Below are positions 7,122 to 52,995 of a stretch of 64,000 nucleotides of DNA, piece after piece. This DNA is from Gammaproteobacteria bacterium (lineage in GTDB: Bacteria; Pseudomonadota; Gammaproteobacteria; UBA12402): NCBI GenBank assembly GCA_050123335.1, contig JASFHH010000003.1, forward strand, positions 6,615-70,614, written 5' to 3'. Below the pieces are notes generated by a model. It was not told the origin of the DNA, searched no databases, and was given only the letters and a program-made list of their open reading frames with translations. Within the stretch, counting starts at the first letter, position 1. Each line of letters begins with the position of its first letter. The position numbers were made by a program, and so were the translations under genes.

Positions 7122-7247
7122 GAAGATGCGAGATTTATGGGAAATTCTGATATTGAAGTTAAATTGAAACTCGCGATTTTACAAAAACAAACAGGTTGTA
7201 AAATCGCGAGTTCCAATTTGAACTGACAGTATAAATCTCGCATTTTC
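7122..7247. repeat. nested palindromic element, family D
   Basis: Outer inverted repeat GAAGATGCGAGATTTAT / ATAAATCTCGCATTTTC and inner inverted repeat AAACTCGCGATTTTACAA / TTGTAAAATCGCGAGTT. Related copies are at 961-1005 and 42745-43050. Confidence 0.55.
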
Positions 7248-16398: not shown

Positions 16399-16518
16399 GG
16401 CGATTATCAGAGATTTTGGGTGGCTTTTTTCGACGACTAGCTCCCATGGATGGAAGAGCGGGAGGCACATGGATGTGCCAGGGAGGAGAAAAAAGACACA
16501 CAAAAACTCATAATCGCC
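16399..16518. repeat. palindromic element family B (copy B1, inverted orientation) inside the pilus operon
   Basis: Core TTTTTTCGACGACTAGCTCCCATGGATGGAAGAGCGGGAGGCACATGGATGTGCCAGGGAGGAGAAAAAAG flanked by the outer inverted repeat GGCGATTAT... Sits between the PilP-like gene and the ATPase gene. Confidence 0.6.
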
Positions 16519-16555
16519 AGAAATAAAAAGTTTGTAAATTATAAGGTAAAAATTT

Positions 16556-19280: not shown

Positions 19281-19751
19281 ATGTTAAATAACTTTCTAAA
19301 AAAACGTAAGTCTGAACAAGGCTTTACTTTAGTTGAGTTCTTGGTTGTGTTAGGACTTATTTTTGTGTTGGTTGCAGTTATTGCAATGGCTGCATATAAA
19401 TCAACTCAGCGTACTCGTATTTCAAAGGTTAAAAGTGAAGTTATGAGTATCGTTGCTGCTGCACAGAATTGGGCTTCTAATAAACCAACCATGTTTAAAA
19501 ACATGACGTTTAAGGATTTAGAGAACTCAGATCTTGTAAGTAAAGATTTGGTTAATAGTAATTACCAGGATCCGTGGGGTGGAGTTTATGAACTAACACC
19601 AGCAGGAAATGGTGGTTCTTTTACAGTTACTATTAATGGAGTGCCTAATAAGTCAATAGCACAAGACTTAGCTGATAACTTGCGTCCAGCGAGTTTAAAT
19701 CAGGATAGTTCTGTAGCTGCTGATGACAACGTAAAGGTAACTTTCAGATAA
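19281..19751 (+). CDS. prepilin-type major (pseudo)pilin
   Basis: Leader MLNNFLKKRKSEQG, then mature FTLVEFLVVLGLIFVLVAVIAMAAY with Glu5. GGGGAGGAG ribosome-binding site. First pilin after the platform gene. Confidence 0.75.
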   Translation: MLNNFLKKRKSEQGFTLVEFLVVLGLIFVLVAVIAMAAYKSTQRTRISKVKSEVMSIVAAAQNWASNKPTMFKNMTFKDLENSDLVSKDLVNSNYQDPWGGVYELTPAGNGGSFTVTINGVPNKSIAQDLADNLRPASLNQDSSVAADDNVKVTFR

Positions 19752-19757
19752 TGTATA

Positions 19758-19824
19758 GGGGCCGGGTCTTTACTTATTACAAGTGCCCTGTCAGTTGCTT
19801 TGTAATAAGTAAAGACCCGGCCCC
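19758..19824. repeat. palindromic element family A (copy A1) acting as a hairpin terminator after the major pilin gene
   Basis: GGGGCCGGGTCTTTACTTATTACAAGTGC-loop-GCTTTGTAATAAGTAAAGACCCGGCCCC. Starts 7 nt after the pilin stop and ends 4 nt before the next ATG. Confidence 0.65.
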
Positions 19825-19827
19825 ATA

Positions 19828-20313
19828 ATGGAGCTAAACGTGAATAAAATGAAAAAGCACAAAGGTTTTACTTTAGTTGAATTGTTATTAGTGATGGCGA
19901 TTTGTGCGTCGTTGACCGCAGTGGTTTATACTGCTTGGCATAATATTCAAGTAAGGTTAGATCTGCAAAAAGTTCAATCGCAGGTAAATATAATAGTTGA
20001 TGTTGCCAGAGCTTGGCGTAATGCAAAAACTTCATATCAAGGGATTTCTATGAGTCCTGATGATAAAGATTCTCTTTGTAATGATAATCTATTGCCAAAA
20101 GATATGTGTGTTGCGGGTTTTGTAAATCCATGGGGTGGTCAGTATCGTGTTAGTGTGTCTGCAAAATATGGTGATAATAATTTTGATGTTACTTTAACTG
20201 ACATTACTAACTCAGAAATACGAAATGCGATCAAATTAATTTTATTAAAAAGCACTTTAGGACAAGACAGTATTCAAATAGAGAGAGACAAAATAATTGC
20301 GACGTTTAATTAA
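19828..20313 (+). CDS. prepilin-type minor pilin
   Basis: The leader ends in G, followed by FTLVELLLVMAICASL with Glu5. The alternative start at 19849 gives a short MKKHKG leader. Confidence 0.7.
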   Translation: MELNVNKMKKHKGFTLVELLLVMAICASLTAVVYTAWHNIQVRLDLQKVQSQVNIIVDVARAWRNAKTSYQGISMSPDDKDSLCNDNLLPKDMCVAGFVNPWGGQYRVSVSAKYGDNNFDVTLTDITNSEIRNAIKLILLKSTLGQDSIQIERDKIIATFN

Positions 20314-22626: not shown

Positions 22627-22676
22627 AATGATCGCATTATATATTATATGAGCGGGAGATAAAAGTGCAACTTGGA

Positions 22677-22737
22677 GGGGCCGGGTCTTTACTTATTACA
22701 AGTGCGATAGCTTTGTAATTAGTAAAGACCCGGTCCC
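22677..22737. repeat. palindromic element family A (copy A2)
   Basis: GGGGCCGGGTCTTTACTTATTACAAGTGC...GTAATTAGTAAAGACCCGGTCCC, followed by the associated ATGTAAAGCTCACGACCCG segment. Confidence 0.65.
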
Positions 22738-22839
22738 ATAAAAATTATGTAAAGCTCACGACCCGCTTGACTTCTGTCATACAACAAGTGAAGATGTGAG
22801 ATATTATACTGATAATATAACATTTATGGGGTGTAAATT

Positions 22840-23220: not shown

Positions 23221-23416
23221 CTCTTGTTTGCAGCAACACCGCCGCCCAGATACCAGGAATTATGTGCTTGTTGCTGTGATTTTTTTGGTAAGTATAAAGG
23301 GCCGCTTTGTCCACAGCCATTTAGTACTAACAAGAATGCAAAAATACTTCCGATAAATATTATTTGTTTTATGCTCTTTTTCATGCTGTAATTATCAAAT
23401 TAATTTTATGTGGCTT

Positions 23417-23523
23417 ATAAGGTTTTGGGTTGATTTTTTCTCCTCCCTGGTACGTCCATGTACCTCCCGCGTTTCCATCCATGGACGCTAGTCGTCGAAA
23501 AATTCAACCCAAAACCTTATAAT
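23417..23523. repeat. palindromic element family B (copy B2)
   Basis: Outer inverted repeat TTATAAGGTTTTGGGTTGA / TCAACCCAAAACCTTATAA around the core TTTTTTCTCCTCCCTGGTACGTCCATGTACCTCCCGCGTTTCCATCCATGGACGCTAGTCGTCGAAAAA. Confidence 0.65.
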
Positions 23524-27279: not shown

Positions 27280-27299
27280 AATTTAATTTTGCTTAGGTA

Positions 27300-27410
27300 A
27301 TCATGATATTCTAGGTTGCTTTTTTTTCCTCCCTGGTACATCCATGTACCTCCCGCGCTTCCATCCATGGGCGCTAGTCGTCAAAAAAAGCAACCTAAAA
27401 TATCATTAAT
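27300..27410. repeat. palindromic element family B (copy B3)
   Basis: Core ...TTTTTTTTCCTCCCTGGTACATCCATGTACCTCCCGCGCTTCCATCCATGGGCGCTAGTCGTCAAAAAAAG with outer inverted repeat GGTTGC.../...GCAACC. Lies between rsmB and fmt. Confidence 0.65.
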
Positions 27411-28862: not shown

Positions 28863-28938
28863 AAATTATAATTATAGCGGAAAGAGTATATTTTTACATA
28901 CATTTTTATGCTTTATTCTGTTACACTGAATGTTAAGT

Positions 28939-29050
28939 TTTTAAGAGATTTTGGGTTGTTTTTTTCTCCTCCCTGGTACATCCATGTACCTCCCGCGTCT
29001 TCATCCATGGACGCTAGTCGTCGAAAAAACAACCCAAAATCTCTTAAAAT
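28939..29050. repeat. palindromic element family B (copy B4)
   Basis: Outer inverted repeat TTTTAAGAGATTTTGGGTTG / CAACCCAAAATCTCTTAAAA around the B core; lies upstream of def. Confidence 0.65.
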
Positions 29051-32446: not shown

Positions 32447-32537
32447 GTCGGGTCGCGAGCTTTACATAATTTTTATGGGGCCGGGTCTTTACTAATTACA
32501 AAGCTACCGCACTTGTAATTAGTAAAGACCCGGCCCC
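32447..32537. repeat. palindromic element family A (copy A3) with its associated segment
   Basis: GTCGGGTCGCGAGCTTTACAT followed by GGGGCCGGGTCTTTACTAATTACAAAGC...GTAATTAGTAAAGACCCGGCCCC. Ends at the CaCA antiporter stop on the minus strand. Confidence 0.65.
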
Positions 32538-32538
32538 A

Positions 32539-33561
32539 TTATATACATAAAATGATCAAATATGCGATATATGCAGCTAACAAGATGCTGCCTTTTGTTT
32601 TAGTGAGTACTTTTTTGTCTTTGCGGCCAAATGCAAAAAAGAACAATAGGACGGTGATGCCAAACATCATAGTAAAATCGATGAGCAGGTGTGGCGCTAC
32701 ATGGATCTGACAAATGATTGCAGGTAGGCCAATTACGGCAAGCAGATTAAAAATATTGGAGCCGATTACATTACCGATAATGATGTCGTATTCTTTTTTT
32801 CTGGCACAAGCCAGTGAGGTTGCCAGTTCTGGGAGGCTGGTGCCTAAAGCAACGATGGTTAAACCAATGATTAAGTCGCTAATATTAAATTGGTGCGCAA
32901 TATGTATCGCACTTTTTACAATCAAATTTGAGCTGATTGGAAGAAGGATTAAGCCAAATGTTATTAGCAAAATGGCTTTCTTAAGTGGTACTTTAGCTTC
33001 GATTTCTTTGCGGTATTCAGTTTCCAAGACGTCTTTGCGCAAAAATTTCTTTCTTCTTTTGCCTTCCTGAATTAGCCAGAATACTACCAAAATAGCTCCA
33101 ATCAGCAATAATATTCCATCGCCTCGGCCAAGCTTGCCGCTTAACATGAATGCGCCGACTAACAGCATAGAAATGAACAATAGCGGAAATTCTTTACGCA
33201 GGGTGGTAGATCGTACTCTTAATGGAACAATTAATGCGGTGATCCCTAAAACTAGGCCTATATTGGCTATGTTTGAACCCATCACATTACCAATTGCTAT
33301 ATTCGGATTACCATGTATTGCAGCCATTACTGAGATTACCATTTCAGGAATTGAAGTACCTAGAGCAATAATAGTTAGTCCAATCAAGCGTGGCGATAAG
33401 CCAAATTTTCTAGCTAAAGTCGCTGCGCCGGAAACCGCGCTATTAGCAGCCCAGGCCAACAAGAAAAATCCTGCTAGTAATAAAATCAATGATGTTAATA
33501 GCCCAAGCTGCATGATAAAAAACCTTGTATTAAGGGTTCGTTTTAATAAGGTGTCTGACAC
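32539..33561 (-). CDS. CaCA-family Na+/Ca2+ (K+-dependent-type) antiporter, YrbG-like
   Basis: Two alpha-repeat motifs: GTSIPEMVISVMAAIHG and GTSLPELATSLACARKKEYDIIIGNVIGSNIFNLL. Confidence 0.85.
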   Translation of the reverse strand: MSDTLLKRTLNTRFFIMQLGLLTSLILLLAGFFLLAWAANSAVSGAATLARKFGLSPRLIGLTIIALGTSIPEMVISVMAAIHGNPNIAIGNVMGSNIANIGLVLGITALIVPLRVRSTTLRKEFPLLFISMLLVGAFMLSGKLGRGDGILLLIGAILVVFWLIQEGKRRKKFLRKDVLETEYRKEIEAKVPLKKAILLITFGLILLPISSNLIVKSAIHIAHQFNISDLIIGLTIVALGTSLPELATSLACARKKEYDIIIGNVIGSNIFNLLAVIGLPAIICQIHVAPHLLIDFTMMFGITVLLFFFAFGRKDKKVLTKTKGSILLAAYIAYLIILCI

Positions 33562-33961: not shown

Positions 33962-36900
33962 TTATAGTTCTATCCACAAGGGAATTGCTGGGTAATACAA
34001 TCCACAAGATATTTTTTCAGAGTATAATTGCATCAGTAATTGTTGATAATTAGTTAATTGTTGCTGATGCTTTATTCTTTCTTGAGCGATAAATTTTTCG
34101 ATATTTTTTCCGCTGAAAGCTGTGGTTTTGTAATCGATAATCCAGCGTTTATTTTGATCAATAAAGGTGCGATCGATTCTGTAGTGTTTTAATTGATTGT
34201 TTTGTGTAGTAGATATTGCAAATTCATTGCGATGATCCTGGTGATTTTTTAAGATCCATTGCGCGCGCGGGTCAGTTAAAATATTTTTTAAGACGAGTTC
34301 AATTTGTTTTTTAGCATAGTCTAAATTATCAGATAATACACCAAGTTGAATCAGCATATTTTGCCAGTATGGCAAAGAATTTTGTATGCGTTTTTCTGGC
34401 CATTTATCGATGCCCTCAATTGATATTTGCTGCAAGATACGATGAATGACCGTACCAAGGTGAGTGTTGGTATTGTTTGGGGGTGCAAGTGACTTTGTTC
34501 CTTCGAATCTGTCATCCCGGACCCAGTCAGTTGATCCGGGATCCATGTTCCCAAATCTGTCATCCCGCGACCCAGCCTGAAGCCTGTCCTGCGGCGCAGC
34601 CAGTTGACCGGAGGAATCGCGGGATCCAGGTTGTTCGGCACGCACAATCCGTCTTAATTGAGATAAGGTTTTGTGTGCAGCATTAGTTTGTTGTCTTTCT
34701 TCTGTGCTTTTGAATTCTTCTTTAACTTGCGGCCAAATTAAATTTAAAAAACTTCCTTTTTTTGGTTCATTGTTCGGTCCTGCGGTACCAAATAAATGCA
34801 ACTGGTGTTTGGCGCGAGTCATGGCAACATAAAGTAATCGCTGAGTTTCAAAGTTATTTTTGCGTTTTTCGTGTGTTTCAAGATAATTATAAATTTTATC
34901 TTTTTGCTCTGCATAATTTTTTATTGGCGCTAAAATTAACTCATCGCCGAATTCTGCTCGAGGTTGATCGGTCCATAATAAAAGCTGTTTTTCTGTTTGC
35001 CGTGCCTGGCGATGCAAACCTGGTAAAATTACCGTGTCAAATTCAAGGCCTTTAGCTTTATGAATTGTCATAATTTGTAGGGTATCATCGTTGGTTGCGG
35101 CAGGAGAGGTAAATAATGTTTCAATTTTTTCTTCGAGTTGGGTGAAATTTTTAATATCACCACCGGCGTCGAAAGTTTCTAATAATTTAAAATAAGTTTT
35201 TGCGTCTTCGATATCAGAACTTTTATTTAAACAAGCGCCCCCATTTATTGATAACCAAGTGTCAAAGACAAAATTGCGCAAATTTTTACGGCCGCGATTT
35301 TGTAATGCCTGATCGAGCCGTTCACATAAAAATAATAAATTTTGTTGTGTATTTACATCAAGTTTTTGTAGGGTGTTTGGATCGTTAATACTTTGCCATA
35401 TGGTTTCGTGCTGATTGGCAATGCAATGTAAATCTTTTAAACTCAAGCCACACCATGGTGCGCGTAAGATTGCAAGCCAGGCAATTTTATCTGCAAAATT
35501 TAGTAATGCGCGAGTTAAAGCCAATAAATCCTGAATTATCGGGTTGGTATTTAGTTTATCGATCTCAATTGCCTGATAAGTTAAGTTACAGTTTTGTAGC
35601 GCAGGTAAAATGTCAGTTAAATGAGAACGTGATCTGACTAAGATGGCGATTTTTTGTTGTGTGTTTTGTTGCTTAATCGATTTAATTAATTTAACTATTT
35701 CATTAACATCATTTGATGTGTGTATTTTGACACAGGTATCAGGAGTGTTTTCGTGAAAACTTTTAGTTTGACTGTATTTTACTGCGCCGTCAGTTAGATT
35801 TTCTACTTGCGGGAAGATATCGGTAAAAACCTGATTAAACCAATTTATTAATTTTTTGTTGGAGCGAAAGTTTGTTGATAAAGTTATTGGGTTTAATTTA
35901 ATATTTCCAATTCCATATTGACGTGCGCGAATAAATAATCCGACGCGGGCTTCGCGAAAACGATAAATTGATTGCATCGGGTCGCCAACAATAAATAATG
36001 TGCGCCCATCATTTTCTTCCCAGCCGGCGGTTAGTAATTCTAATAATTCGATCTGGGAGATAGAAGTGTCTTGAAACTCATCTACCAGAATATGTTTGAT
36101 CTTATAGTCTAAAAATAATGCCAAGTCAGTTGGATCGTCGGTTGTGCCTAATACGTTTTTAGCTGCTTGCGCTACTTCAATAAAATCTATTTCGCCAATT
36201 TCCTGGAAAACTAATTTTAGAAACGCAGCAGCGCGTGGTAATAAAATTGTTAAAGATTCTAAAGTTTGCCATTGTTGTTCTGAATATTTAGTTGGTGGAA
36301 TAATTTTTGCTTCAGTTAATGCTTCGCGGAAATCATCATGCGCAGAAAGTTGCTGTAATAAATCCAGTACATGTTGTTTCATCGGTTTATCGTTTGCTGG
36401 AAAACCATTTCTCTTATCGATAGTTTTGCGCCAGTCGTTTTTATCGGTTAAAAATATTTTAGCAATGAATTGCCAATAATTTATTTCTTCTGTTGTGTTA
36501 TCCCGCGGCAAGCCTGTCCTGCGGCCCAGCCAGTTGACCGGAGGAACCGCGGGATCCATGTTTGTTTTTGCAAACTCAGCTAAAACTTTTATTTCCTGTG
36601 CCAAATTTTTTGGCAAGATATTATTTAATTTTTCCAGGCAATCATAAGAAATATTTCGCAGGCTTTGTTCTAAATCTTCACGTGAAATTTTTTGACCATG
36701 TACATGTGGTAACCATTGGTCACGTTTAGCCAACATTGCGGCAATTAGGTTTTGTGTTTTACTAAAATCATTGTCAAGATGTAGCAATAATTGTTTGATG
36801 TGGAAAGCGCATGCTTCATTAGAATAAATTTGCATCAATAATTCATATGCGGCTTTTAGATATAATGGTTTTGCATCATCAGTGATTTTGGTAATCGTCC

Positions 36901-37267
36901 CAAAAGAAGACAGCATCGGCATCTGTTGTGCAAGATTATGACATAATGAATCAATAGTTTTAATTTGTAAACGGTTTGGATTTTCTAAAAGATTCCAGTT
37001 ATGTTTTTTATCTTGTGCTAAAGCTTGTTTGGCATATTCTTCAGTGGCGTTTTGCAATGCAGCAATTACACGATTACGCATTTCATTGGCGGCTTTTTTA
37101 GTAAAGGTTATTGCAAGAATTTCTTCAGGTTTTTTAACTATACTTAATAAACGCAAAATTCGTTGTGTAAGCAAAGTGGTTTTGCCGGATCCCGCAGGAG
37201 CTTGTACGATAAATGATTTATCGTATTCTAAAGCTTGTTGTCGTTGTGCTAAATCAGTTATGTTCAT
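33962..37267 (-). CDS. addA: AddA-type helicase-nuclease (UvrD-like helicase with C-terminal PD-(D/E)XK nuclease)
   Basis: Walker A APAGSGKTTLLTQRI near the N-terminus; about 1100 aa. The ATG at 37267 overlaps the addB stop by 14 nt; longer in-frame extensions to 37357 exist. The frame stays open through two family-C repeat insertions. Confidence 0.8.
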   Translation of the reverse strand: MNITDLAQRQQALEYDKSFIVQAPAGSGKTTLLTQRILRLLSIVKKPEEILAITFTKKAANEMRNRVIAALQNATEEYAKQALAQDKKHNWNLLENPNRLQIKTIDSLCHNLAQQMPMLSSFGTITKITDDAKPLYLKAAYELLMQIYSNEACAFHIKQLLLHLDNDFSKTQNLIAAMLAKRDQWLPHVHGQKISREDLEQSLRNISYDCLEKLNNILPKNLAQEIKVLAEFAKTNMDPAVPPVNWLGRRTGLPRDNTTEEINYWQFIAKIFLTDKNDWRKTIDKRNGFPANDKPMKQHVLDLLQQLSAHDDFREALTEAKIIPPTKYSEQQWQTLESLTILLPRAAAFLKLVFQEIGEIDFIEVAQAAKNVLGTTDDPTDLALFLDYKIKHILVDEFQDTSISQIELLELLTAGWEENDGRTLFIVGDPMQSIYRFREARVGLFIRARQYGIGNIKLNPITLSTNFRSNKKLINWFNQVFTDIFPQVENLTDGAVKYSQTKSFHENTPDTCVKIHTSNDVNEIVKLIKSIKQQNTQQKIAILVRSRSHLTDILPALQNCNLTYQAIEIDKLNTNPIIQDLLALTRALLNFADKIAWLAILRAPWCGLSLKDLHCIANQHETIWQSINDPNTLQKLDVNTQQNLLFLCERLDQALQNRGRKNLRNFVFDTWLSINGGACLNKSSDIEDAKTYFKLLETFDAGGDIKNFTQLEEKIETLFTSPAATNDDTLQIMTIHKAKGLEFDTVILPGLHRQARQTEKQLLLWTDQPRAEFGDELILAPIKNYAEQKDKIYNYLETHEKRKNNFETQRLLYVAMTRAKHQLHLFGTAGPNNEPKKGSFLNLIWPQVKEEFKSTEERQQTNAAHKTLSQLRRIVRAEQPGSRDSSGQLAAPQDRLQAGSRDDRFGNMDPGSTDWVRDDRFEGTKSLAPPNNTNTHLGTVIHRILQQISIEGIDKWPEKRIQNSLPYWQNMLIQLGVLSDNLDYAKKQIELVLKNILTDPRAQWILKNHQDHRNEFAISTTQNNQLKHYRIDRTFIDQNKRWIIDYKTTAFSGKNIEKFIAQERIKHQQQLTNYQQLLMQLYSEKISCGLYYPAIPLWIEL
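34508..34632. repeat. palindromic element family C (two tandem units) inserted in frame within addA
   Basis: GTCATCCCGGACCCAGTCAGTTGATCCGGGATC followed by GTCATCCCGCGACCCAGCCTGAAGCCTGTCCTGCGGCGCAGCCAGTTGACCGGAGGAATCGCGGGATCCAGG. Read as ...GSRDSSGQLAAPQDRLQAGSRDD... in the addA frame. Confidence 0.7.
36497..36560. repeat. palindromic element family C inserted in frame within addA (second site)
   Basis: ATCCCGCGGCAAGCCTGTCCTGCGGCCCAGCCAGTTGACCGGAGGAACCGCGGGATCC. Confidence 0.7.
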
Positions 37268-52805: not shown

Positions 52806-52995
52806 TTGTCATCCCGCGACCCAGTTTGTTGATCGCGGGATCTAGGCTGTTTGGTAGTTTTCCTGGATACCGCGGGTGAGCCGGTGTTAGTTTAGGCAAA
52901 GCATGCTTTGCCCCGGCGAACGCGAGACATGGATGTCGAGCTGGCAAAATTACCATGGATGGTTGCTTGGAACAATCTAAGCCGCGGTATGACAA
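52806..52995. repeat. family-C palindromic element plus an adjoining composite palindromic region
   Basis: GTCATCCCGCGACCCAGTTTGTTGATCGCGGGATC, then TACCGCGGG...GCAAAGCATGCTTTGC...CCGCGGTA with CATGGATG motifs. The two small ORFs listed here translate repeat DNA. Confidence 0.55.

Follow-up and report, generated by a model that had tools for sequence, protein, structure and literature searches.

Palindromic repeats lying in frame within addA- and addB-like genes of an uncultured gammaproteobacterium very probably belong to the CGTC-4/RPE-4 family

How does a family of short palindromes come to lie in frame within the genes of a double-strand-break helicase-nuclease, and does its likeness to the Rickettsia palindromic elements (RPEs) reflect common descent? 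The question is raised by a 64,000-nt stretch of DNA from an uncultured gammaproteobacterium (contig JASFHH010000003.1, positions 6,615 to 70,614; hereafter the window), in which a repeat called family C is found inside an addA-like and an addB-like gene as well as between genes. A first-pass annotation made from the sequence alone had taken these repeats to behave like RPEs and had read the resemblance as convergent genome biology. Palindromic elements are indeed translated in frame inside an intact addA and an intact addB, and the likeness to RPEs is one of homology, not convergence. Family C is very probably a local population of CGTC-tagged repetitive extragenic palindromes (REPs), with tolerated intragenic copies; its type is CGTC-4, the family to which Rickettsia RPE-4 also belongs. 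RPE-4 of R. conorii was reportedly described by Ogata et al. in 2002.

Anatomy and family of the repeat

An arm-pairing scan of the window, which has ~35% G+C and a GC skew that is positive throughout, returned seven paired copies built on the plan TGTC-ATCCCGCGG-loop-CCGCGGGAT-CCA, six on the plus strand and one on the minus strand. They are listed here under their proposed types, together with the two genes.

33962..37267, minus strand: addA-like gene, UvrD-type helicase plus PD-(D/E)XK nuclease, 1101 aa, intact
37254..39719, minus strand: addB-like gene, TIGR03623 family, PD-(D/E)XK, 821 aa, intact
36497..36559 (paired 36497-36558), plus strand: long-form CGTC-4 REP, addA site 1, read on the minus strand as MDPAVPPVNWLGRRTGLPRDN, AddA aa 237-257
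34556..34630 (paired 34559-34628, 70 nt), plus strand: long-form CGTC-4 REP, addA site 2b, translated PGSRDSSGQLAAPQDRLQAGSRDDR, aa 880-904
34508..34546 (paired 34511-34545, 35 nt), plus strand: medium-form REP with CCGG-variant stem, addA site 2a, translated MDPGSTDWVRDDR, aa 908-920
38647..38677 (paired 38649-38677), plus strand: short CGTC-4 REP in addB, translated LDSAIKPRND, AddB aa 348-357
52806..52845 (paired 52808-52844), plus strand: medium-form REP, intergenic, left partner of a head-to-head (HH) dimer with tags outward
52864..52993, minus strand: composite REP, intergenic, right partner of the HH dimer, arms ATACCGCGG and CCGCGGTAT around ~100 nt
60588..60620 (paired 60590-60618), plus strand: short canonical REP, mlaD-mlaC spacer

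The repeat is present at all five locations named by the first-pass annotation, whose list missed the minus-strand copy at 52864-52993; its "tandem pair" at 34508-34632 does hold two units, which are of different sub-types (the 35-nt medium form with the CCGG stem and the 70-nt long form). With at most one mismatch, GTCATCCCGCG is matched 6 times in the window versus 0.14 expected by chance, and CGCGGGATCC 8 times versus 0.59. A common stem of 8-9 bp appears in the folds of 7/7 copies, ATCCCGCGG and CCGCGGGAT being paired in every fold and one variant having an 8-bp ATCCCGGA stem. The tag before the arm is TGTC in six copies and TGTT in the copy at 36497, and the tail is CTAG in a single copy, with CCAG or CCAT in the other six. 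The canonical unit is clearest at 60588-60620, where TGTC, ATCCCGCGG, CTTGA, CCGCGGGAT and CCAG follow one another (-13.3 kcal/mol, z = -6.3). Loop length is 5-7 nt around CTTGA in the two short copies and ranges from 13 to ~110 nt in the other five, which are best read as expanded derivatives of the 5-nt-loop unit. Among these are a medium form of 35-37 nt, centred on ACCCAGTCAGTTGAT, one composite form of 130 nt, and two long forms (62-70 nt) that share a 53-nt core at 94% identity.

We compared this anatomy to the CGTC-tagged REP superfamily, in which a CGTC or TGTC tag (a CCTC variant is allowed) is followed by an 8-9 bp stem starting with AT, a 4-5 nt loop and a CCA tail (Di Nocera, De Gregorio and Rocco 2013, PMC3733652). 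Its members are dispersed in multiple copies, mainly as HH dimers, and have no dedicated transposase (PMC3733652). The CGTC-4 type, which equals R. conorii RPE-4, has a 9-bp stem with complementary A and T at the first and second positions and a 5-nt loop (PMC3733652). The window copies show the tag, the 9-bp AT-first stem, the CCA tail, and an HH dimer together with dispersed copies (7 in 64 kb). Four of the six frames of the repeat unit are open, and the open-frame translations of the short unit, VIPRLDRGIQ, SSRGLTAGS, LDPAVKPRDD and WIPRSSRGMT, are matched by the peptides reported for R. conorii CGTC-4, namely VIPWLDHGI, AIPRLDRGIQ, WILRSSRGMT and DTVVKPRYD (PMC3733652). The NCBIfam model RPE4 (TIGR03777; cutoff, 23.95 bits), which describes the dimer over 32 positions, scores 40.5 bits (E 2e-10, model positions 2-32) on an inverted dimer in the addA gene of a close relative, L001, and 34.3 bits on the L001 tandem pair. 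A scan of 185,579 species genomes found the hairpin in more than 111 stretches; these belong to many Gamma- and Alphaproteobacteria, one Coxiellaceae metagenome-assembled genome (MAG), and Rickettsia asembonensis, whose copy of the exact hairpin forms a typical RPE doublet. Rfam at gathering thresholds gave no match in the window, Pfam holds no model for the repeat peptides, and a full-text literature search for the repeat string returned only unrelated plant and algal primers.

Insertions in the addA- and addB-like genes

The full open reading frames (ORFs) extend over 33962-37357 for addA (minus strand, 1131 codons) and 37254-39821 for addB (minus strand), and orthologue alignment places the true starts at M31 and M35, respectively. 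The resulting 1101-aa AddA is identical to NCBI MGD9107771.1, and its nearest solved homologue is B. subtilis AddA (3U44). AddA scores 249 bits with the addA_alphas equivalog, whose cutoff of 861 is not reached, and AddB passes TIGR03623, "probable DNA repair protein" (751 bits; cutoff, 300). As the equivalog cutoffs for AddA and AddB are missed, the pair is accurately called "AddAB-like". No stop codon or frameshift is found in either gene, and both frames stay open across the repeat copies, three of which are translated in frame in the addA-like gene and one in the addB-like gene; the open frames, including the 1131-codon addA frame, and the peptides quoted by the first-pass annotation are correct. 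Every invariant helicase and nuclease column is kept in AddA in a 66-sequence alignment, and the catalytic motifs are complete in both genes. The suspicion that addA might be a pseudogene therefore fails, with neither a frameshift nor a lost motif.

We made codon alignments of addA and addB with four close relatives (L001-L004, 76-80% protein identity), drawn from NCBI, ENA and Logan assemblies. The addA sites compare as follows.

addA site 1 (aa 237-257): long form in the window; two short units in tandem in L001 (MDPAVKPRDD twice, 12 nt of flank with each); a single short unit, decayed, in L002; empty in L003 and L004
addA site 2b (aa 880-904): long form in the window; absent from L001, L002, L003 and L004
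addA site 2a (aa 908-920): perfect palindrome in the window; recognisable and decayed in L001, L002 and L003; possible remnant in L004
addA site 3: empty in the window, L003 and L004; inverted pair (84 nt) in L001; pair collapsed to one palindrome in L002 (an alternative listing gives L001 and L003 as the sole filled genomes)

Among 120 AddA homologues, the repeat peptides occur only in the five-genome clade (P0001-P0005), and ~115 more distant orthologues are without them; none of 120 GroEL sequences contains them. The empty sites in relatives and the ~115 orthologues without the peptides therefore indicate insertions and not native sequence, the explanation that had been named in advance as a possible refutation. 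The same AddA sequence, inserts included, was recovered from an independent JGI assembly, which excludes mis-assembly. One hypervariable segment of AddB holds both the window copy, LDSAIKPRND, and, ~15 residues upstream, a distinct copy found in L003, LLDPAIKSRDD. Each takes the place of part of an ancestral ..NLxQL..LQTIKFK.., which is conserved in relatives at 57-78% identity. The window copy replaces the ..LQTIKFK.. segment with a net gain of ~5 aa, and this replacement rules out a clean 30-nt insertion.

Across the relatives, empty, filled, duplicated, collapsed and decayed states are found at the same sites. The changes seen comprise tandem duplication with 9-14 nt of flank, loop expansion, dimer collapse, AT-biased decay and the use of stop-free frames only. 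No target-site duplication was detected when filled and empty sites were compared, and the sequences of the tandem copies with their 9-14 nt flank would point to local duplication rather than to target-site duplication. Within the data compared, the long forms are found in this genome only; their core is absent from 115 fetched loci, and a JGI metagenome scan likewise gave no match. Another eight loci of the L001 genome have intergenic copies only, typically HH heterodimers of a short and a medium form ~21 nt apart. Most copies in the clade are intergenic, commonly as tags-outward dimers, and a few lie in addA-/addB-like genes.

The inserts had been expected in loops, and AlphaFold2 models support such positions. 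In the AddA model (predicted local distance difference test (pLDDT), 84.5; predicted template modelling score, 0.72), site 1 lies in a coil predicted between helices 220-236 and 259-272 (pLDDT 53-61), and sites 2b and 2a fall within an 859-932 coil (pLDDT <50) that links the helicase to the nuclease domain. In the AddB model (pLDDT 89.5), aa 348-357 form the end of a helix and a loop with a pLDDT of 67-74, between flanks at 84 or above.

Alternative explanations, mechanism and known systems

Several observations weigh against the view that family C consists of tolerated CGTC-4/RPE-4 elements. No translated copy of the window itself attains the RPE4 cutoff: the addB unit scores 14.6 bits, the long forms are not matched, and single units cover 10 of the 32 model positions; the model is that of a dimer, whereas the window units are single or expanded. 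The loops of the medium and long forms far exceed the family-defining 4-5 nt. A Pfam scan of addA, addB and 30 more of the ORFs in the 64-kb window gave no transposase domain, and no mobilising enzyme was found among them. The five-genome distance matrix yields a near-star tree, in which gains and losses show no order and a shared site may reflect inheritance, re-insertion or gene conversion. Finally, we infer the tolerance of the proteins for their inserts from predicted models and conservation.

It is nevertheless very unlikely that we are dealing with independent, lineage-specific palindromes that came to resemble RPEs by convergence only. The gammaproteobacterial host is far from Rickettsia, and no other genome in the compared data has the long forms, which would suit such an origin; yet CpG/TpG positions in the stem are all that sets the short unit apart from the hairpin inferred for R. 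conorii CGTC-4, with tag, stem length, CTTGA loop and CCA tail in agreement, the RPE4 model is passed by the dimer of a relative, and the exact hairpin recurs in R. asembonensis and in many other Proteobacteria. The earlier reading as convergent genome biology is thus replaced by membership of one family. Still harder to credit is that the segments are native AddA/AddB sequence, or that addA is a decaying pseudogene, or that the MAG is mis-assembled. The regions concerned are length-variable among distant orthologues and the source is a metagenome-assembled genome, but close relatives have empty sites, the frames are open with conserved motifs, and besides the identical JGI sequence there are orthologous copies in three other assemblies.

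An adaptive role, in which hairpins or peptides are kept in AddAB for their effects on expression or activity, appears unlikely as well. Hairpins in the mRNA might, for instance, affect its stability or translation, or a change in end-processing might lead to a mutator phenotype, as speculated by Di Nocera et al. Such a role could account for 4/7 window copies lying in addAB coding sequence, which makes up 9% of the window (binomial P ~0.002, or ~0.012 with the tandem pair counted once), for addA being the only gene with intragenic copies among the loci of the related genome, for the use of at least five separate addAB sites across five genomes, for the independent published bias towards repair genes (PMC3733652), and for a site 2a palindrome that is perfect in the window and decayed in its orthologues. 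Against it, copies decay freely in sister genomes, with L004 lacking a recognisable copy at most sites, and every site falls in a predicted loop or linker, as passive tolerance predicts. Moreover, AddA and AddB are long and have large stretches of disorder, and the counts come from small samples of copies that are not independent of one another. The addAB share of the copies, small as the sample is, fits the published repair-gene bias. Among the 111 loci of the genome scan, any such bias has to be read knowing that most "spanning ORFs" in GC-rich contigs are spurious.

If family C consists of tolerated CGTC-4/RPE-4 elements, the analogy of GTAG REPs and the REP-associated tyrosine transposases (RAYTs) suggests that copying would probably take place in trans, by an enzyme that recognises the hairpin while it is single-stranded during replication. 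Intragenic copies would survive only where the added length keeps the reading frame, where a stop-free frame leads through the repeat, and where the hydrophilic peptide (Pro/Asp/Arg/Ser/Gly) comes to lie in a loop or inter-domain linker tolerant of extra residues. Selection would in this way filter insertions down to in-frame events in loops. In singleton CGTC-4 copies, the tagged strand is always the plus strand, which is G-rich across the window, and it is inverted only in the dimer partner. With only 5-6 copies to go by, this strand bias could tie the repeats to the template of the lagging strand, as is the case for IS200/IS605 elements. We attach little likelihood to the further idea that AddAB, as a processor of DNA ends and hairpins, is a preferred and re-used target of REPs/RPE-4 across phyla, with insertions that alter its activity or expression or with a propagation coupled to AddAB.

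The closest known system is R. conorii RPE-4, which shares with family C the TGTC/CGTC tag, the 9-bp AT-first stem, the CTTGA loop (here in the short copies), the CCA tail and tags-outward dimers, and which likewise has in-frame intragenic copies, the same peptides and copies in repair genes (a uvrB homologue and dnaE). Family C differs in its host, an uncultured gammaproteobacterium of low GC content, in having hit addA and addB, in a stem that reads CCGCGG instead of CCGTGG, and in the occurrence of forms with expanded loops: medium ones of 35-37 nt, long ones of 62-70 nt and a composite of 130 nt. The longer Rickettsia elements (RPE-1 and others) are also selfish palindromes found in frame in surface-compatible positions of functional proteins, and they also show proliferation followed by deterioration, but they are 100-150 bp long, 3-5 times longer than the 29-nt REP unit seen here, and unrelated in sequence. 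The CGTC-1 REP of Neisseria (dRS3, equal to RPE-6), found in Neisseria intergenic mosaic elements (NIMEs), belongs to the same superfamily, and its arms may enclose variable inner segments, comparable to those of the 52864-52993 copy; it differs by an 8-bp ATTCCCGC-type stem, a 4-nt loop, large clusters and a role as prophage and insertion sequence attachment sites, none of which is seen here. [quoted passage not shown] We accordingly rejected a reading as GTAG REP or REPIN-RAYT, given the TGTC tag and the lack of a Y1 transposase in the scanned window ORFs, and a reading as MITE, as filled versus empty sites show no target-site duplication.

Insertions of this kind are less unusual outside Rickettsia than the first-pass annotation held. 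Intragenic REPs of the GTAG and CGTC kinds are listed in many species and phyla and are over-represented in replication and repair genes, including those for UvrABCD, UvrD/Rep, RecBCD, PolA and DnaE2 (PMC3733652). Among them, C. burnetii addB (CBU_1229) contains a GTAG-3 dimer at aa 190-215 (PMC3733652 supplement), and REPs occupy a common site in Xanthomonas recB (PMC3733652). Both resemble our case as in-frame REPs in a gammaproteobacterial double-strand-break helicase-nuclease, although the C. burnetii addB insert belongs to another REP superfamily (GTAG tag, RAYT-associated) and sits at another site of the protein. In R. bellii, 53 of 526 RPEs lie in coding regions, protein-coding palindromes are documented in Wolbachia, Coxiella QMITEs overlap ORF ends (PMC5896051), and a 2024 review calls in-frame MITE fusions "not unusual". 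Our findings extend in-frame RPE-4/CGTC-4 insertions to an uncultured gammaproteobacterial clade and supply a further, independent example of the bias towards DNA-repair helicase-nucleases that has been published for intragenic REPs. The five related genomes offer a rare side-by-side view of insert gain, duplication, expansion, collapse and decay in one gene pair. No new kind of element is revealed, and the mode of movement is not shown by these data. The host had also been assigned to an intracellular lineage, which is not established: its GroEL is closest, among named relatives, to free-living Gammaproteobacteria (77-78% identity, e.g. Thioalkalivibrio and Beggiatoa), and the best named match of AddB, a Coxiella endosymbiont, reaches only 34% identity. 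An intracellular lifestyle is possible.

The mlaC copy, intergenic copies and other repeats

The copy at 60588-60620 had been counted as a coding insertion at the mlaC 5' end that overlaps the ribosome-binding site. It is instead an ordinary intergenic REP in the spacer between mlaD, which ends at 60761, and mlaC, which share one direction of transcription. Starting 4 nt upstream of the ribosome-binding site of mlaC (AAGGAG, 60585-60580), the repeat abuts this site without overlapping it. The upstream extension of the mlaC ORF to 60657 is spurious, as had been suspected, and the real start lies downstream.

59968..60573, minus strand: mlaC true coding region, start ATG 60573-60571, MKLHKKLILFF..., signal peptide

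The same spacer has a second, different hairpin at 60649-60672 (GATCCCCCACTTTCGCGGGGGATA), and a 31-nt inverted repeat, 97% complementary, lies at the mlaE 5' end (62022-62091).

The HH dimer at 52806-52993 is located downstream of an acyltransferase/AMP-binding gene. The interior of its minus-strand composite partner (52864-52993) contains CCATGGATGG and ACATCCATGT motifs resembling a second repeat family of ~107 nt and the loops of Dokdonella/Rhodanobacteraceae copies (L039, L043). This suggests nested or mosaic elements, like Neisseria NIMEs.

Arrays of CGTC-4 units were seen in many unrelated genomes, with two to three tandem units (4-22 nt of local flank, TGTC tag and left arm) preceding one complete hairpin, for example at L011 3287-3356 (minus strand), L112 5768-5831 and L090 2790-2855. 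Extra left arms accompany 51/144 hairpins and extra right arms 0/144 (L005-L115); the fetch pattern demanded a gap of at least 9 nt and so over-sampled arrays, while the left/right asymmetry is not due to the pattern. Array junctions often show 2-5 nt of microhomology between loop and flank. We found no description of one-sided left-arm arrays in PMC3733652. On the unlikely reading of AddAB as a preferred target, such arrays of tag plus left arm would mark still-active, strand-specific nicking or copying, which could identify the long-sought agent that mobilises CGTC REPs and RPEs. A Chloroflexia MAG (L021, 2156-2188) has a hairpin matching the same pattern within a 1024-codon ORF, where its translation (..DWDPAPTVARGMTS..) falls between a kinase-like and a DinG-like helicase domain; it may be one more REP inside a repair helicase, or GC-rich DNA may have matched by chance.

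Other repeats are also present in the window. The ~107-nt family (..CCTCCCTGGTACATCCATGTACCTCCCGCG..TCCATCCATGG) is found at 16410-16523, 23405-23517, 27293-27404, 28933-29039 and 39797-39846; it is intergenic, for example between fmt and rsmB, and one incomplete copy coincides in part with the spurious extension at the N-terminus of the addB ORF. A third family of ~90-nt palindromes (GGGGCCGGGTCTTTACTAATTACAAAG...CTTTGTAATTAGTAAAGACCCGGCCCC) is located at 19751-19845, 22670-22765, 32449-32558 and 59527-59644, and a fourth consists of ACTCGCGATTTTACAAAAACAAACAGGTTGTAAAATCGCGAGT hairpins at 955-1005, 7169-7228, 42774-42833 and 42966-43010. Seven tandem repeats of 171 nt (57 aa) at 43042-44382 belong to a 539-aa ORF (43118-44737, minus strand), which is adjoined by a paralogue of 541 aa (45101-46726, minus strand). 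The syntenic genes of these two ORFs in L003 match PF25390 WD40_RLD (RCC1-like).

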